Assembly: GCA_963728565.1 (NCBI GenBank)
Contig: CAVSLC010000009.1
Coordinates: 71,111-135,110 of the forward strand
Reading direction: 5' to 3'
Source: an uncultured delta proteobacterium
Lineage (GTDB): Bacteria > Desulfobacterota > Binatia > UBA9968
Length of the DNA stretch: 64,000 nucleotides
The first letter of the stretch is position 1. Each line of letters starts with the position of its first letter. This document shows, piece by piece, positions 23,515 through 46,969 of the stretch. The notes beneath the pieces are model-generated. The model had not been told where the DNA came from, searched no databases, and saw nothing but the letters and a program-made list of their open reading frames with translations. The translations under genes and the position numbers were made by a program.

Positions 23515-25028
23515 TTAATTCACACCGGAAACGACATTCCCATTCGGTGGCCGCTTATCTTTGGTTGGCCGTTCAAAAAAAGCATCTTCGCGATGAACAT
23601 AACCGCGAATTGTCTTGCCTTCGAAAACCGCCTGTACCTGAAGATAGTCTCCTTTGGCGCTGACTACCTTTATCCGTGTCGACGGTTCGAGCGTAGCTAT
23701 AATCTTGGCGTCTGCCCGAGGGCTACCGCGGACAAACGATGATTGTCCAACAACTTCAAAGGTTCCCAAACGCGAATCTCTCTTCTTGGGCGAGCTTTCT
23801 TGCGGTGGGGGTTGCTCGGAGTTGGGCGCAGAGGACGGTGCAGCATGATCTTTCGGAAGATCCTCCGGCTTCGCGCGCACCGCGGTTACGCCTTCGCGCA
23901 GGGCCAAAGAAAGCTCTGGCTCGCTGGTTCGTAACCTCACTGGACGATTTTGATATTCAGCAAGCGTTGCCGCCGGACGATTGTCTGAGTGGCGGCACTT
24001 GCCCGAGATACCCTTTAATCTGCTGAGAATACAAGGCTCCGCCGGCACCACCAAGGGCAAGCAAAGCCAGGACTAAGCCCATGGGTACCCATGCTAAACT
24101 TCTGCGCCGGGGCGGTTGCATAGCAGCGGTAGGACTGGACGATGTAGCCGGGGAGGTTTGAAGGGCGGAGTGGCGTATGTCCGGTGCGGTGAAAGCAACG
24201 CCACGGTTTGGCTCGGGACGATTTGCTAATCCAAGGTCGCGCGCAGCCTCTTGAACTATTTCAGTCGTGACTGTTTTCTTGCCGTCGGCATAGGCAAGAA
24301 GTAGTGCGTTATCGCAGATAATGTTAATCAATCGAGGAATACCGCCGGAAAACAAGCTGATATCCGCAAGTATCTCCGCATCGAATAAATCTTTACCGCG
24401 AAATCCTGCGCCACGAACTCTGAAGGTAATATAACGACTTACCTCGTCATTGGTGAGAGGAGTAAGGCGGCTGTGAATGACGATGCGTTGCTTGAGGTGG
24501 TGTAGTTTCGGCTGGTTCAGTCGGATTTGAAGCTCAGGTTGGCCGGTCAATACGATCTGTAGTAATTTTTCGCCGCCATATTGAAAGTTTGAAAGAAAAC
24601 GAATCGATTCGAATGTCTCATCGCTCAAGTTCTGCGCTTCATCGATCAGTAGCGCAACGATGCGGCGCCTACGAAACTGTGCGATCAGAGTAGTGGCGAA
24701 GCTGCTCGATGCTCGAAACCCGGTCCTGAGGATCGCTCACCAGACCCAGCTCACGGGAAACTAGCTGGATCAGCTCGGTTGAATTGAGTTGATCGTAAGA
24801 GATGAAGATAACCTGAATGGTCGAGCCCAAATCGCGAATAATCTTATCGAGCAGGGTGGTCTTTCCTGTGCCGACGTCGCCGGTCAGCAGGATTAAACCT
24901 TTTCTCCATTCAACGCCGTAACGCAGATTGGCAAAGGCCTCGCGATACAATTCGTTATCGTAAAATATTCGTGAATCTGGCGTGGCGCTAAACGGTGGCG
25001 CTAGGAAGCCAAAGTGTTCGTTGTACAT
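23515..25028 (-). pseudogene. ExeA/GspA-like AAA ATPase with TM helix and C-terminal SH3-like domain, frameshifted in this sequence
   Basis: MY.EHFG...PF..TPD, GDVGTGKT, LLIDEAQ (restored by removing one base near 24690), LQIVLTGQPEL, GIPRLINIICD; C-terminal VRGSP..DAKIIATL...GYV. Confidence 0.8.
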
Positions 25029-25635
25029 AAAAAGGCCGATGCCAGTCCGGTACGGCGACTAAGACCTAGCGCTCAGAACCTTTAGACTGATAATCGGAGC
25101 TGCGTTAACATTTTCAGCGATCGCCTAGCCGATCGACAAGCGAATACTCTCTTCGTCGGTTTAGAGGTTTAATATCATTTTATAATCTCGGCGCAATCGG
25201 CTGGTAATAAAACAGCAAGACATTGTTCGCACACTGTTGCGACGGTTGTCAAGAATGTTTTTTGGGAGCCTTCGCGTGAGATTCAAAAGCGTGGGGCGCA
25301 TGGCAGGTGCATTAGGCCCACGATTCAGACGCTTCAGCGTCTACCCGGACTCACTCGTAACAATTGAGCATCCGGCCGCTGTCGGTCAGGAGATAGAGAA
25401 ACCAATCGGGTTAACCAAGACAATTACCAGCGCAAACACAGTGGCCTGTTCAAGCCGATTCCGCATTCGAGTATTGTGCCGATTCATGTCGGTGTGTTGG
25501 CTAGCAGATATTGAGGCAACCAGGATGATCGTTGAGAGGTGCTTCGTGTTTTATGGTTAAGAACCCTGGGGGATGTGACAGAACTGAGCGATTGGCGAGA
25601 AGGCCGGCTGCGGAAGAATTGTCGGCAGCCGCAGG

Positions 25636-27267
25636 CTAATAGCCCGATATTGCCTGATTTGCTTGAGTTTCGATTGTCGGCTTTGGAGTGAATGGTAGCC
25701 AACGGTTTGTGAAGCCGATCTGGATGGGATGCTTAGCGTCTTCGCGATTCTTCAATCCATTTATCTCGAGCCGGTGCAACACAAGGTTATTCGAGACGGG
25801 TATAACTGTGACGACCACTGGAAAACCATCCCGCACAATACGCTCAGCGAAATCCTCGGCTTCTCTGCGGGACAGAAACGATGCCACGATGAGACGGAAA
25901 GAGCCGTCCGGTTGCTGACGCAGCAATGTTTCCTCATTCAGCGCAGGTAGTAAAAGGTCCTGTCCGGCATTAATCCAGTTTAGATTGGCAATGTCCGGGT
26001 TGAACTCTTTAATAAGGTCGATACCCAGTATCGCGCTCCTGCTGCCATATGCATCAGTGGCGATCTGAAAAACCGTCGAGCCGTTTTGAATCGTTAGCCG
26101 ATGATCATTCGATTTGACACCGATTTCGGCGGTTTGCTGTCGCGTATCTGCTATTTCTACGTTCGTCTTAGACCGGTTGGCATTTTGGCCGGTTACCAGT
26201 AAAGCCCACTCGGCTAAGTTTTTCTGATATCCGTTTAGAGACTCACTGTCGCCTGTGAAAAACCTTCCAGGATCGGTGAGGAAAGCAAATCCGAGTAGGA
26301 TGACGATCGCTAAAGAAGCGGCCGCAGCGGCTGCTAACGTACTTATCGGCTTGCGCTTGGAGATCGGAACTGTCGTTTCGCTCGAGAGTATTTCGGCGCC
26401 CGCAGTTGGTTCTGCGACGGCCCGGGCGCGGTCGGTTTGGGTAGGGATAAGCTGGTTGTCCGGCGCGATCCGTAGATCGCGAACCACTTCGCCGATAACC
26501 TCTGGAGAAACATATTTCTCCGAGCCAGCAAACGCTATCACTAAAGCATTATCACAAATTACATTGATTAGCCGTGGAATGCCCTTTGAATAGAAGGCGA
26601 TTTTCTCAACGGCGTCACTGTGGAATAACTCAGGATTGTCACAGCCGGCGACCCGGACCCGAAAATTGATGTAAGAACCTACCTCGTCATCTCTCAACCG
26701 AGCGAGTTCCGACCGAATTGCGATTCGCTGTTTGAGCTGCCTCAGGTGTGACTGATCAAGTTTGGCCTGAAGTTCAGGTTGACCCATTAGGACGATCTGA
26801 AGAAGCTTTTGGCGATCTGTTTCGAGATTCGAGAGAAGCCGCAATCCCTCCAACGATTCGTCGCTCAAATTTTGAACTTCATCTATGAGCAGGCAAACGG
26901 TTCGGCCATGCTCAAGTTGTTCGATCAGATAGTCGTTTAGTCCCTCTATCATGCTAAGCCGGTCTTTTCCTGCCGTTGGTAAGCCGAGCTCTCGCGAAAT
27001 TACCCGGAGCAGCTCATTGAAAGTAACATCAGTATTGAAAACCAGCACCGTCTGGATCGTCTTGTCTAAGCTGAGCATCAGCTTACGTAACAGCGTTGTT
27101 TTTCCGGTTCCTACCTCGCCGGTAACCGCAATGAATCCCTTTTTTGCTTCGATACCATAGCGAAGGTTTGCATACGCCTCCAGATAAACGGAATTGGCGT
27201 AAAAAAATCGTGGATCAGGAGTTATGCTGAAGGGCGATTCGCGAAATCCAAAGTGCTGTTCGTACAT
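25636..27267 (-). CDS. ExeA/GspA-like AAA ATPase with TM helix and LysM-like plus SPOR-like C-terminus
   Basis: GEVGTGKT, IDEVQ, GQPEL, GIPRLINVICD; IQNGSTVFQIA..YG...IKEFNPDI.NLNWI..GQ.LLLP (LysM-like); FRLIVASF.SR.EA (SPOR-like). Confidence 0.9.
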   Translation of the reverse strand: MYEQHFGFRESPFSITPDPRFFYANSVYLEAYANLRYGIEAKKGFIAVTGEVGTGKTTLLRKLMLSLDKTIQTVLVFNTDVTFNELLRVISRELGLPTAGKDRLSMIEGLNDYLIEQLEHGRTVCLLIDEVQNLSDESLEGLRLLSNLETDRQKLLQIVLMGQPELQAKLDQSHLRQLKQRIAIRSELARLRDDEVGSYINFRVRVAGCDNPELFHSDAVEKIAFYSKGIPRLINVICDNALVIAFAGSEKYVSPEVIGEVVRDLRIAPDNQLIPTQTDRARAVAEPTAGAEILSSETTVPISKRKPISTLAAAAAASLAIVILLGFAFLTDPGRFFTGDSESLNGYQKNLAEWALLVTGQNANRSKTNVEIADTRQQTAEIGVKSNDHRLTIQNGSTVFQIATDAYGSRSAILGIDLIKEFNPDIANLNWINAGQDLLLPALNEETLLRQQPDGSFRLIVASFLSRREAEDFAERIVRDGFPVVVTVIPVSNNLVLHRLEINGLKNREDAKHPIQIGFTNRWLPFTPKPTIETQANQAISGY

Positions 27268-27486
27268 GCCGTTAGCTATAGGTGATTAGCGGATGACCAA
27301 TGCTTCTGGTTGAAATCTCTAATGGAACAAGTCAGCTCGGCCTCTACCGGGGCCTACCTCAATCAGGACCGCTAAACCAGAATACAAACTAGGCATCGGC
27401 TGGCACTGAGCACAGAACGACTCCGATGTACCAACCGGATTGCAGTCTCGTTACTGCGGCCAGAGACACTGAGGAAGGTTAAAGAG

Positions 27487-27502
27487 TGCAACCTTTGTGC
27501 CT
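27487..27502 (-). promoter_or_regulatory. Sigma-54-like promoter upstream of the ExeA-like gene pair
   Basis: AGGCACAAAGGTTGCA on the minus strand (GG-N10-GC). Confidence 0.55.
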
Positions 27503-27834
27503 GCTTTGTAGCGCTCGATTGTTAGTATTTCGAGCAGCAGGCACTAATCCTGCCGCCGTCAAGCGGCAATCTCGCCTGCTCACGCTGGGAGAAGGAATTT
27601 ATCGGGTTTATACGTCGATAAGCTCGAACAAACAGATGCGATACGGGGATAAGCAGATGGCTACGGCGGCCGTCAATACTAGAGCAAGTCCGCCGTGATT
27701 ATCGTGGCAAGTCATTGGCGCATTGGGTTTTCGCATTATTTTGGGTTTGTACGGTCTGTTTTCTATAGCCGGGAAGTAGCTAATAGTGTAGATAGAAGCT
27801 ATTCTAGCCAGGATGCGATCACGAAAGGATAAGC

Positions 27835-28098
27835 ATGGCCGCACGTTACCGCAACCATCTGATTCTTGTTAAAGCTGACTTTGACTCTGAGTCGCGCTTC
27901 TGGAACGTAAGAGCGCATATCCAATTCAACCAACACATAACCTTTCGTGACGTTCTCATCACCGGTCCGAAGGACACGTTCAAAACCCAGAAGAGCGCCG
28001 AAACTCATATCATCCAAGAAGCAAAAAAATGGGTTGACAATAGACTTCGCGAGAATGCCGGTAAGACTAAGACTGCTGATACAGGCGTTGAAACGTGA
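27835..28098 (+). CDS. Hypothetical protein (87 aa)
   Basis: AAAGGA RBS, ATG start, globular-looking sequence. Confidence 0.65.
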   Translation: MAARYRNHLILVKADFDSESRFWNVRAHIQFNQHITFRDVLITGPKDTFKTQKSAETHIIQEAKKWVDNRLRENAGKTKTADTGVET

Positions 28099-28309
28099 CT
28101 GATCCTTGATCTCGCTTCTTAGCCTAATGCGCATCATTGATATTGCAGGAAATGAGATCTCCTTGTTAACGTTAGTTGCATGGCGTGATCTACTAAGGTC
28201 CCCTCTAGTATTTTGAAACAAGCACGTCACTATTGGAGTCTACCAATTGCTTCCTAGAACTCATGCATGACTTCCCAACCGTGGCATACTACAAGCGAGC
28301 GATTTACTC

Positions 28310-28501
28310 GTGAACGAAATACTCTGTGACCACTGTGAAGGGCCTCTGACGGGCAACGCTTATCGCGTACTAAGCGAAGAGGATGGCGTAAGGCTACTCG
28401 ACATGGTGGTATGTCATGCTTGTTATTTGGAAGCGCGAAGGATCGGACTCGAGACTGCCGAACTCGGCTCGATGGTACAGCAGCTGCCCGGGCGTAGCTA
28501 G
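28310..28501 (+). CDS. Small CxxC...CxxC zinc-ribbon-like protein
   Basis: CDHC and CHAC pairs in 63 aa. Confidence 0.6.
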   Translation: MNEILCDHCEGPLTGNAYRVLSEEDGVRLLDMVVCHACYLEARRIGLETAELGSMVQQLPGRS

Positions 28502-28808
28502 AACGATCCCGCGCGCTGGATTATTCCGGAAAACCCTCTGCTCACCCCCAAGGTGTCGGCGATCAGTTCAATCCGCTGCCTTCTGGCTCTAAACACGCAC
28601 TCGCCGATCGTAAGCCGATTTATAGTTAATACCGCGATCTCGCTATTTTATCTTTGCGCGATACCGGATAGCCGTGTGTTCCCGCTGGCATGGGTGCGGA
28701 TGTTGATAATAGCTATTTTTGAAGAGAGTCGGACGGCCGATTTCGAATCGCGTGCCTTTCTAATACGGGAATGTAAAAGAGTAGACGCACGACAGGAACC
28801 GGAGATGT

Positions 28809-29234
28809 TTAGGAGAGCGATTTCAAATAGGTGACGACAGCTTCAGCGTCGGCTCGCGTTAATCGAAATTTGGGCATAGGGGCTTTGGGGACTCTCCCGT
28901 CCGGTGTAATTCCTTCCGTTAATAATTTGATCCCATCTTGGATCGTATAGCCGGGTAGTCCTGCTATCGCTGGAGCCTTATATGCCCAATCGATCCTGAA
29001 GTTGGGCGGCGCTGAAACCGGAACCGGCCCGCCCTGTAAATATCGGGTTTCAAGCAACTCGCCCGTCTGATTACGAGGCGTGTGACACTGGACGCACATC
29101 GCCACCCGCTCGACGAGGTATTTCCCGCGGGAGATTCCATCCTCGATGTTGCCGACCTTATTGTTGCGGTCAGCGGCGGTTGCCAGCCACCAAGTCATAA
29201 AGCTAAACACTAAAGTTAGAAGTATTTTCGTCAC
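28809..29234 (-). CDS. Monoheme c-type cytochrome
   Basis: Signal peptide, RGKYL...CVQCHTPR, PMP axial Met; AGGAGG RBS. Confidence 0.92.
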   Translation of the reverse strand: MTKILLTLVFSFMTWWLATAADRNNKVGNIEDGISRGKYLVERVAMCVQCHTPRNQTGELLETRYLQGGPVPVSAPPNFRIDWAYKAPAIAGLPGYTIQDGIKLLTEGITPDGRVPKAPMPKFRLTRADAEAVVTYLKSLS

Positions 29235-29259
29235 CTACCCTCCTGTAATGAACCGAGTG

Positions 29260-29275
29260 AGCAACGTGCATGCCA
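29260..29275 (-). promoter_or_regulatory. Sigma-54 promoter of the cytochrome c gene
   Basis: TGGCATGCACGTTGCT on the minus strand. Confidence 0.75.
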
Positions 29276-29439
29276 TGTACCTATTAAACGAGCATAGAAT
29301 CACCGCGCAGGGGTTATTAATTGATGCGAATACGTCGATTCCATACATGATAAGAACTGCCCTGCTTGTCTCAATATTGAGATCACTGCGACGATCAATC
29401 ATTTACAACAATAGGGGTCGCACCCCATGCTGAGCTGCA

Positions 29440-29455
29440 TGGTACGTCGATTGCG
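29440..29455 (+). promoter_or_regulatory. Sigma-54 promoter of the oxidoreductase gene
   Basis: TGGTACGTCGATTGCG. Confidence 0.6.
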
Positions 29456-30129
29456 CTATTCGCTCTTGCTATAATTAAGACAACTCCAGTTTTAGCAATC
29501 ACCGTTCATCGGCTTCACAACGCCTTCAATTGAAGGGATCGAACATGCGCGCAATGGTTCTGCCACGGTTTGGGGGATCGAATCTGCGTGAAATGCACGA
29601 ATTAGAGCGTCCTGAACCCGGCTGTGGCGAAATTCTGGTTCGTGTTGTAGCTTCGGCGGTCAATCCCGTTGACGCAAAGCTGCGAGCGGATGGTGGTTGG
29701 GCCAAATTAGATCCGCCCGTGATTCTAGGGTATGACGTTGCCGGCATCGTGGAAGAGGTTGGACCCGGCATAACCGATTTCAAAATAGGCGACGAGGTCT
29801 ACTACACTCCGGAAATCTTTGGCAACCCACATGGGAGTTACGCCGATTACAATGTCGCATCCGCTGCGATCGTCGCGCGCAAACCGACTGGTCTGTCATT
29901 TGTCGAAGCCAGTGCGATTCCGCTTGCCGCGGGCACGGCTTGGGAGGCGGTAGTCCGCAGGTTAGCGCTTCGGCCCGGCGAAACCATTCTGATTCATGGC
30001 GGCGCAGGAGGGGTCGGTTCCTTTGCAGTTCAATTTGCCAAAGCCGCAGGGGCGAGAGTCCTGGCTAGCGCGAGCGCTGACAATCAAAACTTTTTAAGAC
30101 AGTTGGGTGCCGATGTGACCATTGATTAT

Positions 30130-31661
30130 CCCGGATTCAGCAGTTAACAATCATGATATAGAAGAGGGCAGAGAAAAAAGATAGCGGGAGTGAATGGTTA
30201 GGATGAGCAAGGCAAAACGAGACCGATCACCGCTGTATCCGAAGATTATGTTTGGGTTTACCGATCATCCTATCACGGTTTGGGCCGGGGTGATTTACTG
30301 CGGGTGTACTTTGAATGGATCAAGCTTAGAGAGGAGTTGAGCACCGGGTTGGCCAGTTTCACTAAGCGATCAAACAACCAGATAAGCGCAGTGGATGTGA
30401 TGTTGGGGTGGTTTTATGGATTAGCGTTAGGGGCCGAACGGTTTGAGCATTTTACGCGGTATCGGCGCGACGATTGTTGGGGGAGTTGTTGGGAATGGAA
30501 CGGTTTGCATCTTCCGACACGATACGGCGATTGTTTTTGCGATTTGACTATCGGCGTGTGACGAGGTGAGCGAGCGGTTGATGCGATTTAGTTTATCGCG
30601 GATGCGACCAATCATGTTGGGACACACCGTGGACTTAGACTCCACCGTGTTTTGCCGCTACGGGCACAGCAGGGAGTTTAAGAGGATACAATCCTCACAA
30701 ACCGGGGCGACCAGCCATCATCCTTGGTGGCGTTTTTAGCTGAAGGGAGACGTTTGTTACGGGCCACGCTACGAGTGGAGACACTGCACGCCAATGAGCG
30801 TGAGTTCATGACACAGGCACTGACGGCGCTTCCCCCAGGGCATCGGATCGCTATGGTACGGGCCGATGCAGGATTTTTCGAGAAACGGTTCTTGGATCAC
30901 TTGGAGAAAGAGCAGTTGCCCTACATTATTGTGGCTCGGTTAACGGCGGTGGTGCGCAAGCTGGTGATTCACCGGATACCATCTAAGGCCTGGCGCGTAG
31001 TGACACGGGGAGTGGAGGTGGCCGATGTTGAGGCCAGTTTGTCCAATTGGCGGGGTGCCCAGCGCCGTTTTGTCTGTCTGCGCCAGGAAGTTGTCGAGCG
31101 CCCCGAGGCACGCGGCAGACGTCTGGTGGATTTTCCTGGATACACCTATCGAGTCGTCATCACCAGTGTGCCGTATGCGGCCGAAGTGGTCACGCGCATG
31201 TATGCCGGGCGTGCCGACAGTGAGAACCGGATCAAGGAGTTAAAAGAAGATTTAAGCCTGGATACTTTTTGTCTCAAATCCTTTGATGCTACCGATGCCG
31301 CGTTTCGGATGGGCTGCATGCTGTACAACCTGTTAGCGGATTTTCGCGAAACTATGTTGCCGAGGCCATGGTTTGAGCGGCGGCTTAGGGCGCTGAGAGA
31401 TTTTGTCTTGGTCGTCGGGGCGGACTTGATTGCCCAAGGGCGCAGAGTTCAAATCCGTTTAGCCATGCCACAATCACAACGCGCGGAGTTTCTGCGCCGC
31501 TTGCGCACCGTCTCACAGGGACTTCCAATTGCGGCGCAGTTGGAATGGTCGGTAGTGGATCAGCCTGCAACTCATCCCGACAATATCATTACCCCGATCC
31601 CGCTTCTCACTCCAATTCCAACCACAAATTCTTCCCCATGAAATCTCTACTGCGGAATGGG
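30130..31661 (+). mobile_element. IS1380-family insertion sequence
   Basis: Imperfect terminal IRs cccggattcagcagt / actgcggaatggg; ATTAT direct repeats at 30125-30129 and 31662-31666. Confidence 0.88.
30203..31641 (+). pseudogene. IS1380 DDE transposase, multiply frameshifted in its 5' half
   Basis: DLDST, VRADAGF, Y.GRADSENRIKELK, YNL motifs. Confidence 0.85.
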
Positions 31662-32100: not shown

Positions 32101-34539
32101 TTGCAAATGCGCAGACATCCTATGCGAATTCAATCTAGGGGAAAACTTCGAAAGTTGCTGGCAGGCGGGGTGCTCGTCGGTATACTGGCGGGGGCTCTTG
32201 TTGAACGCGGCCAAGCAGCTACCACTTCGCCCCCTGTGGCAGAGACAGACTCTGCTACCGCCGTGCCGAGCCCGGCAGCGATTCCATTGCCCGAGATAGC
32301 CAGGGAGGCCGAGGCAGCCCTGGCGCGAGTGCGTGAACGGCTGGCCGAGGCTCCTGATAGCCGAACGATGCCGGCGGTGGTGCACCAGTTTCCGCTATTG
32401 ACTCGTGAGATCGACGCGCGTCTTCGTCAGACCCGCAGGATCTTGGCGCAGCGACCGGCGATCCAGACGCTCAGCCACCTGGAGTCGGAATGGCGACCGC
32501 TGCGGCGCAATCTCGCCGCCTGGAACCGGCAACTAACCGGCTATCTAAGCCGGCTCGAAAGTGAGATAGCCGAACTCGACGAACTTGGTAAAGTTTGGCG
32601 AGAAACTCTCGAGGCGGCTAAGCTCGCAAACGTTCCCCCGGAAGTTCTCGATCGAATTCAGGCGGTTCTCGCTGAAACTGAAAAGGCGCGCAAAGAGATT
32701 GAGGGTTACAGCGGACGCGCCTTGAGCTTGCAAAATCGCGTGGCTGCTCAAGATGGTCGCATCGCCGATGCCTTAGCTTTGATCGCAAAGGCACGCGAAA
32801 ATGCGCTGGACCGTCTTTTTACGCCGGACAGCGAACCGATTTGGAGCATCGAATTAGGTTTGGATAGCACCCACGAGCTTCGGACGGAGAGTAGCACTTC
32901 GATTGCGACCCAATGGCAGTCATTGAGCGCCTATGCGGCGCGCCAGACACCGTCCTTCCTGATTCATGCCGGAATTTTTATCGGTATAGCCGCGGGCTTT
33001 CGATGGTTGCGCCGACGAGTCGAGCCGCGGTTAGAAGATGCCGGGATCGGGTGCTCAGCCATTGTCTGTGAAACACCGATTGCCGCCGCTTTCCTCCTCT
33101 CAATGTTTTTCAGCCGCTGGATCTATCCGCAGGCGCCGCGTTTGTTCTGGGCGTGTCTCGGGACACTGGCTCTGATCCCCAGCGCAATCATCTTACGCAG
33201 GCTTATCGCACGCGATCTTTATCCGGCGCTGTACGGTCTGGCAACGTTTTATGTTGTCGATCAGGTCCGCGCGATTCTTGTTGCGGAAGAACTTGCGGCT
33301 CGCCTGCTTTTGCTCGGCGAAACGTTGGGCTTGATGGCGTTTCTGGTTTGGCTGCTTCGCTCTGTCGATCGGCTGGGTATTCAGAACACCAGCTTTGGCC
33401 GACTGAGCAAGATCGTCAAGATCGCGGCGAGTCTGGCTTTGATAATGGCCGCGGCGGCTTTCATCGCCAACGCCACCGGATATATGACGCTCGCTAGCCT
33501 TCTCGGTAATGCGCTTCTGAGCAGCGGCTACTTTGCGCTGATTCTTTATGCCGTCGTCGAGTTGATAGATAGCCTCGTGATGATCGCGTTCAGTCTGCGA
33601 CCGCTCCGAATGCTCCGTATCATCTCCAAGCACGGCGCACTGCTTCGCCGTCGAATTTATCGGATTCTACAATGGACGGCGGTCCTTCTGTGGGTTATTC
33701 ACATCCTCAATCGCCTGTTGTTACGCGACCGTTTGTTCAGCGCGATCAGCGACTTTATGACCGAACAATTAGTTGTCGGCTCGCTGCGAATTTCGCTGAG
33801 CGACATAGTTGTTTTTGGCGCCACAGTTTGGGCAGCTCTTCTGGTCTCGCGCTTCGTTCGTTTTGTTCTTGATGAAGAGGTCTTTCCACGAGTTCATCTG
33901 ACTCGCGGTTTGCCTTATGCGATTTCCACTATGATCAACTATGCCATTGTGCTGGTTGGATTTTTTGCAGGGGTAGCGGCGTTAGGCGTGGATATGACGA
34001 AAGTTACGATACTTGCCGGCGCTTTCAGCGTCGGTGTCGGCTTTGGCTTGCAGAACATCTTCAATAATTTCGTCTCGGGTCTCATTTTGTTGTTTGAGCG
34101 GCCGGTTAACGTCGGCGATATCGTGCAGATCGATGACGCCTCGGGGGTGGTTCAAAGGATTGGTATTCGCGCGAGCATTATCGGCACACCGGCCGGCGCC
34201 GAGGTGATCGTTCCCAATGGCAAATTGATATCAGAACGGGTCGTCAACTGGACGTTTTCAAATCGTCGGCGCAGCATTGAGCTGCAATTGGCGGTGGCAC
34301 AAGTCGCCGATCCGCGCCGAATCATCGCCTTACTTGAGCGCGCCGCCAACGAACATCCGCTTATTAGCCGCGACCCTCCTCCCAAGGCATGGGTTGTAAA
34401 ACTCGGGCCGGATTCGCTCGGACTGGAGCTGCGCGCCTGGACCGATCGCATACACGACTGGATGGAAGTGCGCAGCGAGCTTGCAATTGCGGTTAGCGAT
34501 AACTTAGCGGCTGAAAACATAGCTTTGCGTGCAGTTTAG
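32101..34539 (+). CDS. Large mechanosensitive channel, MscS/MscK-like
   Basis: Periplasmic helical N-region, many TM helices, GVGFGLQNIFNNFVSGLILLFERPV.VGD, VPN motif. Confidence 0.92.
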   Translation: MQMRRHPMRIQSRGKLRKLLAGGVLVGILAGALVERGQAATTSPPVAETDSATAVPSPAAIPLPEIAREAEAALARVRERLAEAPDSRTMPAVVHQFPLLTREIDARLRQTRRILAQRPAIQTLSHLESEWRPLRRNLAAWNRQLTGYLSRLESEIAELDELGKVWRETLEAAKLANVPPEVLDRIQAVLAETEKARKEIEGYSGRALSLQNRVAAQDGRIADALALIAKARENALDRLFTPDSEPIWSIELGLDSTHELRTESSTSIATQWQSLSAYAARQTPSFLIHAGIFIGIAAGFRWLRRRVEPRLEDAGIGCSAIVCETPIAAAFLLSMFFSRWIYPQAPRLFWACLGTLALIPSAIILRRLIARDLYPALYGLATFYVVDQVRAILVAEELAARLLLLGETLGLMAFLVWLLRSVDRLGIQNTSFGRLSKIVKIAASLALIMAAAAFIANATGYMTLASLLGNALLSSGYFALILYAVVELIDSLVMIAFSLRPLRMLRIISKHGALLRRRIYRILQWTAVLLWVIHILNRLLLRDRLFSAISDFMTEQLVVGSLRISLSDIVVFGATVWAALLVSRFVRFVLDEEVFPRVHLTRGLPYAISTMINYAIVLVGFFAGVAALGVDMTKVTILAGAFSVGVGFGLQNIFNNFVSGLILLFERPVNVGDIVQIDDASGVVQRIGIRASIIGTPAGAEVIVPNGKLISERVVNWTFSNRRRSIELQLAVAQVADPRRIIALLERAANEHPLISRDPPPKAWVVKLGPDSLGLELRAWTDRIHDWMEVRSELAIAVSDNLAAENIALRAV

Positions 34540-35949: not shown

Positions 35950-35982
35950 GTTTAATTAGGACAGTAGAATAAGGAGATGTGT

Positions 35983-38131: not shown

Positions 38132-38136
38132 CTGGC

Positions 38137-38425: not shown

Positions 38426-39548
38426 CTAGCCGCTTCTATCGCGTTCTGGCCCGGAGGCTTTGAAGAATCCGTTTGACGCATTCGTATGCAATGCAGAGCG
38501 CGGCTCTTCATGGTTGCGCCGGATGACCCTATCGGCCGTGCGGGTAAGTACCGATGGCGCCATAAAAGAGTAGCTTTGCCAGCCCCGTTTCAAAGCATTC
38601 CCTTCACCCGGCCGGGTGCTTGGCAGGCCTCGTGAAATCAATCCTAGAACTTCCGCGGTAATGTTTGGGAATAGAGAATTGACCAGATGAAGAAGGCGCG
38701 CTTGAGGCGTAATAATCAATTCGGCTTTGCCGTAACGGCACGCTTCCACGATCTGCCGGGCCGCTCGTTCGGAAGCTGTAGAGAACAACGGTGACGCATT
38801 GGCGATACTGAAGAGTGCGAACTCTTTTTGATGCTGTCCCTTAAAAAACGCGTTGATGTGAGAGCCGGTGCGCATCAAACCAGGAACCACCGTGGTCACG
38901 TAAATACCGTCTTTTATCAGCTCTGCCCGCATCGCCTCGGAGAAGCCGACCAAAGCGAATTTACTGGCGACATAGGGCGCCAGATGAGGCACCGCGACCT
39001 TGCCGCCAATTGAGGTAATGTTGACGATGCGGCCACCGCCTTGCCCCTTCATATGCGGAAGCACTTCGCTTATCAGGCTAAGCGGAGCCCAGAAATGCAC
39101 TGCCAACGCGTCGCCGTAATCGTCTCGGTTCATGTTTTCCGCAGGCCCGACTTGGATGATGCCGGCGTTATTAACCAGTACATCGATTGTTTTGAACTCA
39201 TCGATAATGGACGTAATAGCGCGCCGCGCTTCGTCGGCTTGTGTCACATCACACTGTCGGGTCGATATCCGCAACGCCGTATCTTCTGAGTTCTTGAGCG
39301 GCTTCCGTTAGCCGGTCTTGATCGCGGGCCAGTAACACAACGTTAGCGCGTTGCGCTGCAAAACAGCGAGCCAGTTCTAAACCAAGCCCGCGTGATGCTC
39401 CCGAGATCAACACGGTCTTTCCGGAGAAATCGATTCTACGATAGCGACCCAAAGCGTAGGAGAGACCGGCGGCCGCGACACCGACTGCGGCAATTTTTAC
39501 CGGTAGCGGCAGCCTGTTCTGCGAAGTGACTCTCATGATCTCCTCCAT
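38426..39548 (-). pseudogene. SDR oxidoreductase with N-terminal hydrophobic anchor, single frameshift near 39265
   Basis: SGASRGLG in the 5' ORF; NNAG, YVASK and PGLMRTG in the 3' ORF. Confidence 0.85.
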
Positions 39549-40279: not shown

Positions 40280-40295
40280 TGGCATTCTAATTGCT
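40280..40295 (+). promoter_or_regulatory. Sigma-54 promoter upstream of the lipoprotein gene and opgGH
   Basis: TGGCATTCTAATTGCT. Confidence 0.7.
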
Positions 40296-40318
40296 CGACT
40301 TGTCGTCGGGATAGCAAT

Positions 40319-40750: not shown

Positions 40751-40939
40751 GGAAGCTTTGGAGTGCCGAGAGCTGCTAGTGATGACGCGCTGATGGCTAC
40801 AAGCTCGGCTTCTGCCTTCAAGGGATAGGGCAGCCTACAGCCGAAACTTTTCCAATTTAAATCGCTGTTAGATCGACTGCTTTCAGAGGCGCGCTGGCAT
40901 ATGCCTGCGACGCAGCCGATGGAGTGTATATAGAACCAA

Positions 40940-42469
40940 ATGATGCCGCCACGTTCGTTTCTTCACCGAGGTCAGATTCTGGGCTGGAGTTTTTTTGTAT
41001 CGCTGACTTTTCTGTTGAACTGCTCCTTTGCCGCTGCTGACAATGTATTCGGATTTGAGCAGGTTGCCGAGACCGCGCGAAAGCTCGCCGCGGAGCCTTT
41101 CAAGCCACCCCCGCCGGTACCGGATTTTCTCAAGCAAATAAGTTACGACGAATATCGCGACATTCGCTTCGATACTGCGCAAAGCCTGTGGAAGGACAGT
41201 GGCAACTTCCAAGTACAGTTTATACATCCCGGACTTTTTTACACCCATAGTGTTACGGTGAATACGTTTGATTCGCAGGGCGTGCGCAAAGTCGCTTTCT
41301 CGCCGAAACAATTCACTTACGGGAAGAATAAGTTTGCCGAGAAGATCCCGCCTGAACTCGGCTTCGCCGGATTCCGCATCGCTTATCCACTTTATAAAAA
41401 GAACGAATACAATCACGTCATAGTCTTCGCCGGCGCCAGTTATTTTCGCGCGGTGGCGAAGAAGCAGGTCTTCGGTCTTTCGGCGCGCGGGCTGGCCATC
41501 GACACCGGCTTGCCGACGGGTGAGGAATTTCCGACGTTTAGAGAATTCTGGCTCGAGCGACCGACACCGCAGGCGCGCGCGGTTAAAGTTTTAGCCTTGC
41601 TCGATAGTCAAAGCTTGACCGGCGCCTACGAGTTTGTCGTTCGCCCGGGAGATCGTACCTCGGTCGACGTAAAAGCTCGGTTGTTCGAAAGAAAGAGGGT
41701 CAAAGAGTTGGGGGTTGCGCCTCTCACCAGCATGTTTTTGTACGGTGAGGAGAAGCCGCGTCCGAACAACGACTGGCGTCCAGAGGTGCATGATTCCGAT
41801 GGACTTATGATGGCTTCGGCTAGCGGAGAATGGATTTGGCGGCCGCTCATCAATCCGGTGAGATTACAGGTCAGCTATTTCGATGTCGACAGCCTGCGCG
41901 GCTTTGGCCTGCTGCAAAGAGATCGCAGTTATTCGAACTACGAAGATTTGGAGACGCGTCATGAGATGCGGCCCAACGCCTGGATCACTCCTAAAGGTGC
42001 CTGGCCCAAGGGGCAAATAAAGCTTGTGGAAATCCCAAGCCAAAAAGAGACCAACGACAACATCGTAGCTTACTGGGTCCCGCGGAACATGCCGGCAGTG
42101 GGTCAACCGCTGGATCTCGCGTACCGGATTAACTTCCAAACCGAAGAACCCCTCGATGCGGCGTCGGGCCGAGTAACGGCCACCCGGGTCGGAGTCGGAG
42201 ATAAAGATGATCTAAAGAGGATCATCCTAGATTTTGAAGGCGCTAAGCTCAAAAGCTTGCCGGACACGGCTCCGGTAAAGGCGGTGGTCACCGTTGGCGC
42301 CGATGCTCAACTAGTTCAGCAGAGTACTGTCAAAAATCCGGTCACCGGCGGCTGGCGCGCTGCCTTTCAAGTTAAGCCGCCGAAGGACAAAGCGCTACAG
42401 CTCCGGGCATTTCTACGGAACGAAAACGACACCCTTACCGAGACTTGGAGCTATTTGTTAGAGCCATGA
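40940..42469 (+). CDS. opgG: Glucan biosynthesis protein OpgG/MdoG
   Basis: YDEYRDIRF, FAGASYFRA, GLSARGLAIDT, EEFP.F, RPEVHDSDGL, ETNDNIVAYW, TETWSY. Confidence 0.96.
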   Translation: MMPPRSFLHRGQILGWSFFVSLTFLLNCSFAAADNVFGFEQVAETARKLAAEPFKPPPPVPDFLKQISYDEYRDIRFDTAQSLWKDSGNFQVQFIHPGLFYTHSVTVNTFDSQGVRKVAFSPKQFTYGKNKFAEKIPPELGFAGFRIAYPLYKKNEYNHVIVFAGASYFRAVAKKQVFGLSARGLAIDTGLPTGEEFPTFREFWLERPTPQARAVKVLALLDSQSLTGAYEFVVRPGDRTSVDVKARLFERKRVKELGVAPLTSMFLYGEEKPRPNNDWRPEVHDSDGLMMASASGEWIWRPLINPVRLQVSYFDVDSLRGFGLLQRDRSYSNYEDLETRHEMRPNAWITPKGAWPKGQIKLVEIPSQKETNDNIVAYWVPRNMPAVGQPLDLAYRINFQTEEPLDAASGRVTATRVGVGDKDDLKRIILDFEGAKLKSLPDTAPVKAVVTVGADAQLVQQSTVKNPVTGGWRAAFQVKPPKDKALQLRAFLRNENDTLTETWSYLLEP

Positions 42470-44931
42470 GCAAGAATATTTATCAGCCCGGTTTTTCAGC
42501 GGCGAACGAATCATTGTCTGAGATTGCCGCGCCGGCGAATGGGATGCGCGAAGTAAACACCGCGGCAAACGTCGACGGCGTTATCAGCAGGCAAAAGGAG
42601 CGCGATTCGCATCGGGGAATACGCGAACTGAACAGGCGAAGACGATTCCATCACAGATGGGCTCAAGAGGGAGGTGACCGCGGCGTTGCTCCAACCGATT
42701 TGAACGCGCTTCGGCGGAATATCCATGCCCTGGCGATGCCCGAGATCAAGCGCTTGTCGATGTTGCCGAATCGGCTAGAACGCAATCCGCTGGTGACTCT
42801 GTGGCGCAGGCTGCGCGGCACAACCAGCAACGATGATCGGGAGAGGACTGGCTCAGCGTCCACCGAGGGTACTGTGGTAGGTTGGCGCGCCGCCGCGGCA
42901 TCTCGCCGTGTGCTGTTGATTACTTTGATCATAATACAGACAGCGATTGCTACCTGGTCTCTAAGCAATACCTTTCCGTACCCATGGCTCAAAGCATCCG
43001 AGATCGCCATCTTGGTGCTATTCGCGATCCTGTTTTCGTGGATTTCGCTGGGGTTCTGGAGCGCAGTGGCCGGATTCTGGATGCTCTGGACGCGCAAAAA
43101 CGAATTTACCCGCGCTGATTTGCCAATCGACGAGCGGCAACCTTTGCGCTCGCGCACCGCCGTGCTCATGCCCATATGCAACGAAGATGTCACTCGTGTA
43201 TTTGCCGGTCTGGAAGCGAGTTATCGCTCACTTGCGGAGACAAGGCAATTTGCAAATTTTGATTTTTTCGTACTGAGCGATACCGGTGATTCGGTCAGGC
43301 AGGCCGAAGAGGAGATTGCATGGGCACAACTCTGCGCCTCGTTGCAGGCCTTCGGCAGAATTTTTTATCGCCATAGGCGCAATAACGTTAGGCGCAAAAG
43401 CGGCAACATCGCCGAATTCCTGCGCCGCTGGGGACGAGAGTATGATCACATGATCGTGTTCGACGCCGACAGCATCATGGCCGGCGAAACAGTTGTCCGG
43501 CTGGCTCAAATGATGGAGCAGTACCCGCAAGCAGGAATCATTCAAACGGCTCCGACCACGGTCAACTGTGATTCGCTCTTTGGACGATTGCAGCAGTTCG
43601 CCAGCCGGGCGTATGGCCCCATGCTTACGGCAGGCCAGCGTTTCTGGCAACTGGGTGAGGGTTATTATTGGGGCCATAATGCCATTATTCGCACTGCGCC
43701 ATTCATCAAACATTGCGGCCTTTCTCGTCTGCCGGGTCACGCTCCACTGGGCGGAGAGATTCTCAGTCATGATTTCGTCGAGGCTGCGTTAATGGGCCGG
43801 GCCGGTTGGGAAGTTTGGGTGGTTTATGATTTAGGCGGCAGTTATGAAGAGTCGCCGCCGACGCTTGCCGACGAACTCAAGCGCGATCGCCGCTGGTGTC
43901 AAGGTAATCTGCAACACTTGCGCTTACTGCTGGCGGATGGGATCCGCGGCGGGCATCGCGCCATTCTGGCGATGGGCGTCATGGCTTATGCTTCGGCTTT
44001 GCTCTGGTTTGTGTTTTTGATCCTCAACACGGTCGAGCTTGCGGCCCAGACGGTTCTGCCTCTGGTCTACTTCTCAAGTGAACCCAGCCTCTTTCCGCTT
44101 TGGCCCCGCTGGAATCCCGATTGGGCGGTAGCCTTGCTGACGACCACTGCCGTACTGCTGTTTTTACCCAAGCTTTTGAGTCTCCTGGTGATTGTCAAAA
44201 ATCGCCAGACGCATCTGTTTGGCGGCCTTTTGCCCTTGTGTATCAGTATCTGTCTAGAGATTATGGTGTCCACTTTACTCGCACCCATCCGAATGTGGTT
44301 TCACAGTCAATTCGTTGTCGTGACTCTGATGGGCAGACAGATAAAATGGGGGCCGCAATTTCGCACCGATAATCAAACCGGCTGGCGCGACGCGACTCGA
44401 CTACATGGTCTCGCGACGTTTGTGGCGTTTAGCTGGGTCTTCGGCATGTACTGGCTAAATCCAGCAGTTGCGGTCTGGCTCTTGCCAGTCGGTATCTCGC
44501 TGCTCCTCGCAGTGCCGTTATCAGTTTACTCCAGCCGTCTTTCCTTGGGGCGGCTGATGCGCCGCTGGCGGCTCTTCCTGATCCCGGAGGAAATTCACTC
44601 GCCCCAGATTATAAAATATCTTCAGATGTCTCTGGGTAAACGAAGAGAGAATCAGCAGATGGATGGCTTTGTTCATGCAGTGGTTGATCCTTATGCCAAT
44701 GCCGTCCACGTGGGCCTGTTGCGCGGCAAAAGACCCAAGGCTAGCGAAACTATCGAGCGAAATCGGAATCTGCGTGAATTCGCTCTGAGGGACGGGCCGG
44801 CGACTCTCAACAGCTCCAATCGAAGGCATCTGCTGCTAGATTCGGAAAGCATGATGCTTCTTCACCGACAGGTGTGGCGTGTTCGTGATCCCAATTTTGC
44901 GAGCCAGTGGGGATTGGGCGAGCTCCAGTGA
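42466..44931 (+). CDS. opgH: Glucans biosynthesis glucosyltransferase OpgH/MdoH
   Basis: MPICNED, RKSGNI, DADS, YWGHNAIIR, ILSHDFVEA, RDRRWCQGNLQH; ATGA overlap with the opgG stop. Confidence 0.96.
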   Translation: MSKNIYQPGFSAANESLSEIAAPANGMREVNTAANVDGVISRQKERDSHRGIRELNRRRRFHHRWAQEGGDRGVAPTDLNALRRNIHALAMPEIKRLSMLPNRLERNPLVTLWRRLRGTTSNDDRERTGSASTEGTVVGWRAAAASRRVLLITLIIIQTAIATWSLSNTFPYPWLKASEIAILVLFAILFSWISLGFWSAVAGFWMLWTRKNEFTRADLPIDERQPLRSRTAVLMPICNEDVTRVFAGLEASYRSLAETRQFANFDFFVLSDTGDSVRQAEEEIAWAQLCASLQAFGRIFYRHRRNNVRRKSGNIAEFLRRWGREYDHMIVFDADSIMAGETVVRLAQMMEQYPQAGIIQTAPTTVNCDSLFGRLQQFASRAYGPMLTAGQRFWQLGEGYYWGHNAIIRTAPFIKHCGLSRLPGHAPLGGEILSHDFVEAALMGRAGWEVWVVYDLGGSYEESPPTLADELKRDRRWCQGNLQHLRLLLADGIRGGHRAILAMGVMAYASALLWFVFLILNTVELAAQTVLPLVYFSSEPSLFPLWPRWNPDWAVALLTTTAVLLFLPKLLSLLVIVKNRQTHLFGGLLPLCISICLEIMVSTLLAPIRMWFHSQFVVVTLMGRQIKWGPQFRTDNQTGWRDATRLHGLATFVAFSWVFGMYWLNPAVAVWLLPVGISLLLAVPLSVYSSRLSLGRLMRRWRLFLIPEEIHSPQIIKYLQMSLGKRRENQQMDGFVHAVVDPYANAVHVGLLRGKRPKASETIERNRNLREFALRDGPATLNSSNRRHLLLDSESMMLLHRQVWRVRDPNFASQWGLGELQ

Positions 44932-45304
44932 AATCGTAAAACTAAGTTGTCGCATGATGCCGTGCCAATAATGATCGGCTCACTCCCCATGTAAATAAGC
45001 GATCGCTTCTTCTCGTCAGTATTCCAAGCGGCCCGCAACGTCGAAAAAGTTGTGGCTTACCAATACCACTGATTGTTGTCGGCTGCGTCTAATTGTCAGG
45101 CAGATTGCTTAGACTGCGATCGCGATTATAACAGCGGTGGCGCCCATGATTATCCGGCCCAGTCTTAAGAATAAAACTAACCTGTGGCCGTTTTGATATG
45201 ATACAAAAAGCCCTTAGCTTATACTGCTAGGCTGTTGTGGGCGCCGTGCTTGTGGTGGGTTGCCCGGCGGGTTAGGCTTGTTAGTCTAAAGATGGCAGTG
45301 GTTT

Positions 45305-46969
45305 ATGTATAACGAATATTTTGGCTTCACCGAAGCCCCATTTAGCCTCACACCCGATCCGCGGTTTAGTTATACCAACGCGCTTTACCAGGAAGCATTC
45401 GCTACTTTGCGCTACGGGATCGAGGCGCGCAAAGGTTTCATCGTCATTACGGGAGAAGCGGGTACCGGTAAGACGACCCTCCTCAGGCGTTTGATGCAGA
45501 GCTTTGGCCGGCACGTGCAAACCGCATATATCTATAACCCGCATGTTACTCTGTCGGAGCTGCTGCGTCTTATCCTAAGCGATCTGGGTTTGACCAACCG
45601 CACGGACGACCGACTGGCGATGATTGCGCAGTTGAATGAATATCTCATTAAACAGCTGAAAGATAGCAATATCGTTACTCTTTTAGTTGATGAAGCTCAA
45701 GAGCTCAGCGTTGAGATGCTCGAGGAAGTCCGGCTTCTTTCCAATCTCGAGACCGACACTCAGAAGCTTCTCCAGATTGTCTTGATGGGGCAGCCCGAGC
45801 TCGAGCGCAAGCTCGATCAGCCTGAGCTCCGGCAATTGAAACAGCGCGTTGCGCTACGTTGCCGACTCGATCCACTGCCCAGTAATGAGGTCGGCGAGTA
45901 CATTTCAGCCAGACTCAAAGCGGTCGGGTACTCGCGTAAAGACCTGTTCCATGCTTCGGCGGTAGAGAAAATCGCCATTCACTCCAGAGGTATCCCCCGG
46001 GTTATAAACATCATCTGCGATAACGCTTTACTGATTGCCTTCGCTGCCTCTAAGAAAATTGTCTCCGCCGCTACGATTGATGAGGTCGCTCGCGATTTGC
46101 GTCTTAACCAGCAAGGGTCCGCTCCTGAGATTCCGCCCCCGCCGACCGTGGGTTCGCCAAAAGGTTCGATCGAAAAGCTAGAAGGATTTCGTTCGAAACG
46201 CGTGTCGGCCCGGCCCGGTTTTCGGACCCCGGCGTCGCCCGAATCCGAATTCTTCATGATCGGTCTTGAGGAAAAGCCAGCTCACCTTCGCAGCGAAAAA
46301 AAACTGGCCGGATATGGAACCGGTGTTTTTTCACTGGGCATCGCCCTAGGCCTTGCCACCATTTTGTTCTACTCCCAACAGATGTGGGGTGGTTTAGCGG
46401 CGCTGACTGCGGGCTTCAAGGGATTTACCGCTACACAAACGAGCGATGCGGTGCCGGCGCAGCCGACGGGCCCTAGCGACAGATCAGCACCGGATCTCTG
46501 GCAGGAAAAAAGCGCTCCTGAAGCTCCGCCGCCTCAATTTCCCACAATCGAGCAGCAAGCGTTGACAGAAAGCCCGAAGCCTAACATAGCTGAACAGCCC
46601 CAGGAGCAATCCTTCGAACCTCCTGCTCCGATTGAACGACAGCGGAATTCGACAACAGGACGAAAGCCGCCGGAAACGGCGCAGCCAATGCCCGGGAGAA
46701 GATCTCTTGCTTCACCTATTCCGTCGCCCGCTAGTTTGCCGCGCAACCAGGCGGCCGTTACAGACCGCGAGTTGGAGATGCAAGTTGAGAAGGCGATCGA
46801 CAATCGCGCTTTGAGGGGAATAAGCGTGTCGGTAGAGAGTGGCACGGTTTATCTCCGGGGGCGTGTGCCGACAACGCGCCAGCGACTTGCGGCGCAGCGC
46901 GCGGCGCAAAGTGTCGAAGGAGTAAAATCCATCGAGAATCAGATTGGCCTCGACACCGGGCCGGACTAA
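45305..46969 (+). CDS. ExeA/GspA-like AAA ATPase with TM helix, Pro-rich linker and C-terminal BON domain
   Basis: GEAGTGKT, VDEAQ, GQPEL, GIPRVINIICD; D.ELE.QV...I.VSVESGTVYLRG.V....A...A.SVEGVKSIENQI (BON). Confidence 0.9.
   Translation: MYNEYFGFTEAPFSLTPDPRFSYTNALYQEAFATLRYGIEARKGFIVITGEAGTGKTTLLRRLMQSFGRHVQTAYIYNPHVTLSELLRLILSDLGLTNRTDDRLAMIAQLNEYLIKQLKDSNIVTLLVDEAQELSVEMLEEVRLLSNLETDTQKLLQIVLMGQPELERKLDQPELRQLKQRVALRCRLDPLPSNEVGEYISARLKAVGYSRKDLFHASAVEKIAIHSRGIPRVINIICDNALLIAFAASKKIVSAATIDEVARDLRLNQQGSAPEIPPPPTVGSPKGSIEKLEGFRSKRVSARPGFRTPASPESEFFMIGLEEKPAHLRSEKKLAGYGTGVFSLGIALGLATILFYSQQMWGGLAALTAGFKGFTATQTSDAVPAQPTGPSDRSAPDLWQEKSAPEAPPPQFPTIEQQALTESPKPNIAEQPQEQSFEPPAPIERQRNSTTGRKPPETAQPMPGRRSLASPIPSPASLPRNQAAVTDRELEMQVEKAIDNRALRGISVSVESGTVYLRGRVPTTRQRLAAQRAAQSVEGVKSIENQIGLDTGPD

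Follow-up and report, generated by a model that had tools for sequence, protein, structure and literature searches.

ExeA-like ATPases with exchanged, putatively envelope-binding tails in an uncultured member of the Binatia

ExeA/GspA has so far been regarded as an accessory of type II secretion alone, and the question raised by this locus is what three genes for ExeA-like ATPases, here called winA, winB and winC, are doing in a stretch of genome where none of the scanned open reading frames (ORFs) was seen to encode a type II secretion system (T2SS) component, a secretin or a pilus protein. The stretch (hereafter the window) comprises 64,000 nt from an uncultured delta proteobacterium (Binatia, UBA9968) and corresponds to positions 71111-135110 of contig C9 in a source genome (G000) of 4.53 Mb and 28 contigs that is 80.55% complete and 5.84% contaminated. 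An earlier note, made from the letters of the DNA, had described the three genes as a domain-shuffled family that may belong to an undescribed envelope-remodelling or stress system, and had remarked on the absence of secretion and pilus genes from the window, an observation that stands for the ORFs scanned. The analysis presented here suggests that they are paralogs, dispersed and diversified, of the 'secretion ATPase' that normally lies within Wza/Wzc-type exopolysaccharide (EPS) loci or heads them, on the TIGR03015 branch of the ExeA/GspA/MshM superfamily, and that they may act as a scaffold or switch for glucan or EPS export; we consider this reading about as likely to be right as wrong.

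Architecture of the three proteins

The ORF ends agree with the gene coordinates of the earlier note (Table 1), the sequence motifs it listed are all readable in the translations, and the three genes share a homologous N-terminal region of about 270 aa, with 61.8% identity between winB and winC over 267 aa (E 8e-107) and 50-54% identity between the pieces of winA and both of the others. AAA_22 scores 96.9 bits in winB and 101.9 bits in winC. All copies have intact Walker A and B motifs, and residues K56, D129, E130, N147, R181 and R232 are invariant in an alignment of 22 sequences; we read the Asn and Arg residues among these as a sensor-like Asn and an arginine finger. The model of winC residues 1-280 shows an AAA+ fold whose best structural match is MuB (8xvb, E 7e-13; TM-score on the target 0.76), with ORC/Cdc6, TnsC and RuvB next; 500 or more PDB entries match at E<=0.001. 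These four kinds of protein all oligomerise. MuB, TnsC and ORC-Cdc6 are soluble, DNA-bound oligomers, however, whereas the window proteins are predicted to be anchored in the membrane and no DNA-binding part was identified in them.

A single hydrophobic segment follows the ATPase in each protein, as had been claimed, and lies within aa 306-357 with more lysine and arginine (K+R) on its N-terminal flank; that of winA was located via the intact ortholog in G005, a genome of the same genus. The helix calls come from our own Kyte-Doolittle (KD) hydropathy scan rather than a dedicated predictor. Because there is one such segment with this K+R bias, a cytoplasmic ATPase and a periplasmic tail are predicted for all three.

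The tails beyond the helix differ from protein to protein (Table 1). LysM, SPOR, SH3_3 and BON are known as modules for binding or anchoring, and are not known as ligand sensors. The BON assignment of winC is clear of its cut-off, and the tail resembles OsmY and DolP/YraP, with profile matches to OsmY and, less strongly, to YraP (7a2d, E 0.0015), but those are soluble or lipoprotein periplasmic proteins without an ATPase. The SH3-like tail of winA was also recovered, at a score only just above the SH3_3 cut-off; its orthologs score 27.0-27.7 bits, the one in G005 exactly as winA does, and the SH3_3 tails of two more distant copies (L015 and L016b) 31.4-31.7 bits. For winB, the LysM-like and SPOR-like assignments were only partly borne out, as the hidden Markov model (HMM) matches are weak while the structural model is supportive. 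This model, from a 16-row alignment, has a mean pLDDT (model confidence) of 74 with a core at about 90, and superposes on the SPOR domain of RlpA with a Z of 7.2 (root-mean-square deviation, rmsd, 1.3 A; 69 of 76 residues), where a Z under 8 calls for caution. Elsewhere in this tail type the HMM scores are higher and attain the Pfam cut-offs: the SPOR domain reaches 25.3 bits in L012, an ortholog of a winB paralog, and 24.5-35.3 bits in related tails, and LysM reaches 28.3 bits.

Table 1. Features of the ATPase genes and of the opgGH pair, in window coordinates
Feature	Position	Strand	Details
winA	23515..25028	-	ExeA-like ATPase, transmembrane (TM) helix and SH3_3 tail; TIGR03015 matches on pieces 1 and 2
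winA ORFs as assembled	24669-25028, 23957-24628, 23515-24060	-	ORF list
winA first frame break	24686..24690	-	one extra base relative to G005 at ~24688; context not a homopolymer
winA second frame break	23984..23988	-	one extra base relative to G005 at ~23986
winA predicted TM helix	24026..24100	-	hydropathy of G005 ortholog, aa 310-334, KD 1.93
winA SH3_3 domain, predicted periplasmic	23587..23736	-	PF08239, E 3.4e-6, 27.6 bits (cut-off 27)
winB	25636..27267	-	intact 543-aa ExeA-like ATPase, TM helix, LysM-like and SPOR tail; only in-frame indels relative to G005
winB AAA+ ATPase module (aa 1-270)	26458..27267	-	Walker A GEVGTGKT, Walker B LLIDEVQ; AAA_22 1.5e-27; TIGR03015 285.8 bits
winB predicted TM helix (aa 306-337)	26257..26352	-	KD 2.48; K+R 2 on N-flank, 1 on C-flank
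winB LysM-like domain (aa ~387-444)	25936..26109	-	LysM HMM E 0.042; model on LysM Z 4.2-5.5, rmsd 1.1-1.5 A
winB SPOR-like domain (aa ~456-525)	25693..25902	-	SPOR 18.5 bits (cut-off 21); model on RlpA SPOR 6i05
opgG-opgH	40940..44931	+	directly upstream of winC, 374-bp gap; MdoG 2.8e-190 and GT2
winC	45305..46969	+	intact 554-aa ExeA-like ATPase, TM helix and BON tail
winC AAA+ ATPase module (aa 1-270)	45305..46114	+	AAA_22 4.2e-29; TIGR03015 290.4 bits; model pLDDT 90.3
winC predicted TM helix (aa 337-357)	46313..46375	+	KD 1.71; K+R 4 on N-flank, 1 on C-flank; conserved in alignment A1
winC BON domain (aa 487-547)	46763..46945	+	PF04972 6.6e-13, 49.2 bits (cut-off 27); A1 profile matches OsmY 8rjx, E 1e-6

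Family placement and exchange of tails

Among curated families, the ATPase modules are best matched, end to end (positions 1-267 of 269), by TIGR03015, the XrtA/PEP-CTERM system-associated ATPase. Thirteen short and long forms taken from other loci score 112-307 bits against the same family, all below its cut-off, and those embedded in EPS loci score 263-307, a range into which winB and winC fall. A careful tree of 49 ATPase modules (51 rows less the long-branch rows L053b and L054) places the modules of winA, winB and winC among EPS-locus ATPases, in a clade of 31 rows (support 93/90, not starred), and the GspA, T2SS and MSHA rows in a separate group (83/71; GspA rows 100/100). Within it, winB falls in a starred clade of ten rows (96/95) that also includes L017, an ATPase of the long form from inside an EPS locus. 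When the 18-row clade containing the window copies is forced onto the T2SS group, the tree becomes 12.4 log-likelihood units worse (p-AU, from the approximately unbiased test, 0.014).

The tail types are interleaved on this tree. One starred pair joins winC (BON) to L015 (SH3; 98/94), another joins a LysM+SPOR copy of G005 (the C11a type) to the third SH3 copy of that genome (100/99), and a third joins the BON and SH3 copies of a single locus (L016 and L016b; 99/93). A constraint uniting the six SH3-tailed rows, a group defined by its tail type, is rejected (p-AU 1.1e-6). Since the type of tail is not predicted by a copy's place on the ATPase tree, the tails are judged to have been swapped between ATPase modules. 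The earlier description of the family as domain-shuffled is upheld, its members being bitopic ATPases on the plan of ExeA whose tails are predicted to bind different wall or membrane layers. It is not, however, a family of three: a tblastn search found eight loci in G000.

The wider distribution agrees with a family that is large in this lineage. All seven other genomes of genus g1, to which G000 belongs, carry 4-10 matches each, and matches at E<=1e-20 occur in 19 of the 31 genomes of the relatives sample (including the unpublished G012 and G018), with none in the seven genomes of family f3. The ten copies in G005 comprise one with a BON tail, two with LysM+SPOR, three with SH3, one with an unassigned tail, and three without a hydrophobic segment that have a cytoplasmic C-terminal region in common. 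At the level of the class, 123 of 151 genomes have a match at E<=1e-15. The combination AAA_22+BON is common in metagenomes, being present in 119 of the 120 metagenome matches of winC that were listed, out of 7,613 scored (45-96% identity), the exception being P0059 with 55% coverage, and the closest named database matches of winC are proteins of metagenome-assembled genomes (MAGs) labelled 'Candidatus Binatia bacterium'. The tail type of winB gave 131 matches at E<=0.001.

Sixty tails were scanned, picked from the listed rows of the class sample (40 best-per-genome matches and 20 lower-scoring paralogs). LysM and/or SPOR was found in 24, PG_binding_1 in ten, a SnoaL-like/DUF4440 domain in seven, and Phage_tail_X alone, ankyrin and DUF4215 in one each; 16 had no domain, and none of the 60 had BON or SH3. 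The ankyrin-repeat and DUF4215-repeat tails belong to ExeA-like ATPases at L117 (G045:C270) and L123 (G165:C155), and G045, where the ATPase module finds 13 matches, has the highest count seen. The cytoplasmic tail of one paralog matched DUF8082 in the ESM Atlas (score 0.78), which is a lead only, as Pfam gave no match on the same tails. A resemblance of the L062 tail (G005) to LytR_C was a guess by eye and was dropped, with no Pfam match. An SH3-tailed copy recurs beside a copy with another tail: LysM+SPOR is followed by SH3 at 23515-27267 of the window, BON by SH3 in tandem in G008 (L071, G008:C144), and BON and SH3 lie 3.5 kb apart in L016.

ExeA itself has a cytoplasmic ATPase needed for complex formation and a periplasmic domain that binds peptidoglycan and multimerises on it, as described in PMC4098917. 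The window proteins are like ExeA/GspA in having an N-terminal AAA_22 module with the same N-terminal signature, one predicted TM helix and a predicted wall-binding periplasmic part, but their tails are BON, SH3_3 or LysM+SPOR in place of PG_binding_1 with or without a C39-like domain, and they differ from it in clade and in lacking any T2SS linkage. PG_binding_1 (PF01471) and GspA_C39-like domains gave no match in the tails at E<=0.5; PG_binding_1 is present in L041, L045 and L047. GspB/ExeB (T2SSB) gave no match among the neighbouring genes, while L043 and L045 each have one; a genome-wide T2SSB search also found nothing in G000, but the control matched in no genome either. Because the PG_binding_1 tail, an adjacent GspB and a place in the GspA clade were all looked for and not found, winA, winB and winC are, on sequence grounds, not members of the GspA group. 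Two MAG records from the Binatia (L039:7910-10306 and L040:3430-5820) encode proteins of about 770 aa whose C-termini weakly match T2SSB/GspB (E 0.0019 and 0.1); both adjoin the GspA clade on the tree and may be GspA-GspB fusions.

Gene neighbourhoods and a proposed role

Outside the source genome, 22 of 47 loci were examined. In eight, the ATPase lies beside genes for a chain-length determinant and/or a tyrosine kinase (L017, L020, L023, L028, L034, L042, L046 and L053), six have a T2SS, MSHA or GspB context (L041, L043, L045, L047, L050 and L056), two have a sigma-54 response regulator upstream and a NusG/RfaH-like gene downstream (L018 and L019), and the remaining six have none of these. 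The pattern is sharper for the LysM/SPOR type. In 20 loci of this type picked from the class sample and compared by tblastn, a sigma-54 response regulator is directly upstream in all 20, an RfaH-like gene is downstream in ten, and a Poly_export-Wzz-AAA_31 series is downstream in seven. Within the window's own family (f1), 12 further loci were examined, and in two of these, from sister genus g18, the order is RfaH-like, ATPase, Poly_export, with the ATPases matching winB and the C11a copy over their full length (43% over ~560 aa). For the LysM+SPOR type, homologs are thus consistently tied to EPS loci, an outcome that the earlier note had itself named as refuting its idea, and the idea of an orphan, undescribed envelope-stress system is unsupported.

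These neighbourhoods also define what the window copies share with known systems and where they depart from them. Like TIGR03015 ATPases, they fall in a clade with EPS-embedded forms, and relatives with the tail type of winB head EPS loci; unlike the short cytoplasmic form of that family, they have a TM helix and a periplasmic tail, score under the cut-off and stand outside EPS loci. The architecture of winB is also that of a class-wide module consisting of a response regulator, an ATPase with TM helix and LysM/SPOR tail, an RfaH-like protein, and Wza, Wzz and BY-kinase genes. The ATPases of this module (L018 and L019) are sister to the clade with the window copies, but the latter are detached from the locus, have multiplied to eight, and carry further tail types. 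A literature search found, in the papers it covered, no description of the EPS-locus ATPase or of the tail variants reported here, and no name for the response regulator-ATPase-RfaH module; the sections available of PMC1569441, PMC2907700 and PMC10599522 are silent on the EPS-locus ATPase.

A different linkage was found for the BON copy. The earlier note had taken OpgGH, MltD and MscS in the vicinity as a hint of function, and the OpgGH part of this is fitted by the BON type, which follows opgGH in two genera; MltD and MscS showed no conserved link. OpgH is present in nine of the 31 genomes of the relatives sample, and an ExeA-like gene follows it directly in seven: G000, G002, G003, G004, G005 and G007 of genus g1, and G014 of genus g8, whose ATPase has two BON domains. 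In G006 there is a contig break between opgH and the ATPase. OpgH occurs in 64 of the 151 genomes of the class sample, with no further adjacency among the rows listed (164 are unlisted). The link between opgGH and the BON-tailed ATPase is real and limited to this lineage. Scans for promoters and terminators gave counts at the level of shuffled sequence and no signal on co-transcription of opgH and winC.

The third linkage concerns other paralogs. A gene for a small sCache_3_2 membrane protein lies directly downstream of two of the eight G000 paralogs (C11:195160-195840 and C13:457186-457929), and an sCache-HAMP gene lies directly downstream of the ATPase in seven of the 12 f1 loci (L158-L161 and L164-L166), one copy being read as HAMP-like; the three f1 loci still to be accounted for have none of the queried neighbours. 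All seven partnered ATPases of these related genera are without a hydrophobic segment, and the arrangement is therefore a conserved two-gene module that resembles a sensor and its ATPase split into separate proteins. By contrast with the linkages above, winA, winB and winC themselves have no sCache, response regulator or RfaH-like neighbour, and apart from opgGH, 5' of winC, the neighbours seen in the ORF scans of the window are metabolic and transport genes.

Taken together with the architecture, these linkages are consistent with a bitopic inner-membrane protein in which a cytoplasmic AAA+ module would be joined through one TM helix to a periplasmic module for a particular layer of the envelope, LysM+SPOR for glycan strands, SH3_3 for the wall and BON for membrane lipid. 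If the proteins work as ExeA does, the cytoplasmic module would oligomerise under the control of ATP and so cluster the periplasmic anchors, and the clustered anchors could fix or gate an envelope-spanning machine for polysaccharide export or glucan at the chosen layer. The LysM+SPOR and SH3 copies may serve in trans the two EPS loci of G000, on contigs C18 and C23, each of which has RfaH-like, Poly_export, Wzz and AAA_31 genes in that order and no ExeA-like gene, and the BON copy may serve the adjacent OpgGH glucan system.

Several observations weigh against this scaffold or switch. None of the eight G000 copies lies in an EPS locus (those on C18 and C23), their neighbours being mostly metabolic, and no BON- or SH3-tailed copy was met inside an EPS locus among the few contexts examined (L015, L016 and G008). 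No exosortase (PF09721) match was found in G000, which is, as said, an incomplete genome. All of the TIGR03015 scores are under the curated cut-off of 324.5 bits, the key branches of the tree are not starred, and both groupings used in the AU tests were named after the tree had been seen. The loci sampled were chosen by hand among the rows listed, and genomes that are related do not count as independent cases. As to opgGH, OpgH occurs without an adjacent ATPase in G049 and in the unpublished G018 (there not on one contig), and BON copies occur without opgGH in L016 and G008. Lastly, the pairing of seven cytoplasmic-tail paralogs of related genomes with an sCache-HAMP protein looks more like signalling than scaffolding.

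Signalling of the state of the envelope, which is the core of the idea in the earlier note, has to be taken seriously as a rival in view of the linkages to response regulator, RfaH-like and sCache-HAMP genes, even if we think it rather doubtful. It would have the tails or the sCache-HAMP partner act as sensors, and the AAA+ module as a nucleotide switch that reports to regulators governing the synthesis of envelope polysaccharides, namely the sigma-54 response regulator and the RfaH-like antiterminator, with no scaffold involved. The neighbourhood counts given above favour it, as does the likeness of the fold to that of MuB and ORC/Cdc6, AAA+ proteins that behave as switches, but the tail domains are known for anchoring rather than sensing, there is no output domain, and the window copies lack the neighbours on which the idea depends. 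A variant, which we regard as unlikely, combines both roles: paralogs with mixed tails would co-assemble in AAA+ rings with the sCache-HAMP protein into an ATP-gated, trans-envelope sensor that sets the export of periplasmic glucan and EPS. Such rings may hold the inner membrane to several envelope layers at once (glycan strands, denuded septal glycan, membrane lipid); the recurrence of an SH3 copy beside one with another tail and the link of the BON copy to opgGH fit this picture and do not show it. If true, it would represent a previously undescribed envelope-homeostasis system of a soil lineage.

Two further explanations look to other machinery. That the window proteins are true GspA/ExeA-type factors, helping the secretins of a T2SS or type IV pilus through the wall in trans, would account for the overall architecture, which is the same as that of ExeA, for the name 'general secretion pathway protein A' that the database matches carry at source, and for the secretin matches in G000 (C2:114501 and C28:101907). 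Those secretins are on other contigs than the window, however, and no T2SSB match is adjacent. Genuine GspA+GspB loci stand apart in a starred clade of their own, to which the window copies are joined only at a significant cost in likelihood, the tails lack PG_binding_1 and GspA_C39-like domains, and relatives in the class have separate paralogs with PG_binding_1 (ten of the 60 tails scanned), all of which makes this explanation very unlikely. An AAA_22 ATPase of a mobile element or anti-phage system (of the MuB/TniB/TnsC or STAND kind) is scarcely credible. MuB is the closest solved fold, there are weak nSTAND and PADLOC P-loop matches, and a fragment of a DDE transposase lies at 30724-31641, but the PADLOC matches reach at most 31 bits and cover just the P-loop region, the proteins combine a predicted TM helix with tails that would bind the wall in the periplasm, the gene order is shared with G005, and the transposase fragment sits 3.4 kb away in a 1.5-kb insertion that is absent from G005.

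The favoured reading, of diversified EPS-locus ATPases that scaffold or switch polysaccharide export, suggests a general modular design of one AAA+ module, one helix and one swappable envelope anchor, which would be common in an uncultured lineage from soil and linked chiefly to the export of polysaccharide and its control of the sigma-54/RfaH type. If it is true, the unexplained 'secretion ATPase' of EPS/PEP-CTERM loci gains a testable working model, and thousands of genes automatically named 'general secretion pathway protein A' need another annotation.

Frame breaks in winA and other features of the window

The earlier note had taken winA as a single gene, but as assembled it consists of three ORFs (Table 1). 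The window is syntenic with G005 at 92-96% nucleotide identity, and an intact ortholog of 503 aa is found there at L011:9686-11197; relative to this, winA has exactly two indels, both single-base insertions in the window (~24688 and ~23986). Orthologs in G004 are intact as well. Near-identical contigs from public sequencing runs also bear on the two sites (five short contigs from four runs, none of which covers the whole stretch). At ~23986, three of them (X1 record 2 and X2 records 18 and 19) are one letter shorter than the window, record 19 of X2 having no other difference from it, and at ~24688, a site that is outside the X1 contig, two are one letter shorter (X15 record 11 and X4 record 27); these differences follow from the lengths of the aligned pieces, which do not give the exact position of the gap. 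Contigs of X15, an RNA library, fall on 27 of the 30 bins of 23400-27400, and are not counted as evidence of expression. Since the gene is intact in G005 and the public-run contigs are one letter shorter, the breaks in winA are probably assembly errors.

Frameshifts of this kind are spread over several unrelated genes. In the alignment of about 30 kb to G005, ORFs of G005 in the high-identity blocks are frameshifted by eight single-base insertions and one deletion. Besides those at 23986 and 24688, single-base insertions in ORFs that are intact in G005 occur at 20757, 22449, 22523, 37329, 39271 and 39686, splitting a MutL-like gene (21922-23370), a FAD oxidoreductase gene (36709-38131) and a short-chain dehydrogenase gene (38426-39548). 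This looks like a systematic assembly error, and any 'pseudogene' in G000 is therefore to be read with care. A decaying family, in which winA and the other frameshifted copies are real pseudogenes and the cluster is partly non-functional, seems quite unlikely to us. It would be in keeping with the two breaks in winA, one of them (~24688) not in a homopolymer, and with the frameshifts in three more G000 paralogs (the C11a, C13b and C4 copies), which bring the broken copies to four of eight. Against it stand the intact orthologs in G005 (of all four copies) and in G004, the shorter public-run contigs at both sites, the near-uniform direction of the frameshifts across unrelated genes, and a dN/dS of 0.33 for winA relative to G005 (0.022/0.066; the values for winB are similar, 0.025/0.099).

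Rfam and tRNA scans across the window gave no match. The MltD mentioned in the earlier note corresponds to an SLT+LysM gene at 10991-11782, which is not nearby but 11.7 kb off, behind unrelated metabolic genes, and MltD and MscS were rejected as partners, with no conserved adjacency seen beyond plain synteny with G005. A stretch of about 2.2 kb 5' of winB (27268-29500) is rich in indels relative to G005 and has small ORFs only, with no Rfam match; one of these, of 141 aa (28809-29234), is cytochrome c-like. The 1.5-kb stretch without a counterpart in G005, which carries the transposase fragment, spans 30131-31660 and cuts short a zinc alcohol dehydrogenase gene (29530-30147) whose G005 counterpart is complete (324 aa). 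Between the paralogs there are also genes for a large MscS-family channel of 812 aa (32101-34539) and for a member of the Holin-X (Phage_holin_3_6) family (35977-36441), both syntenic in G005 and with no further link to the ATPases seen.

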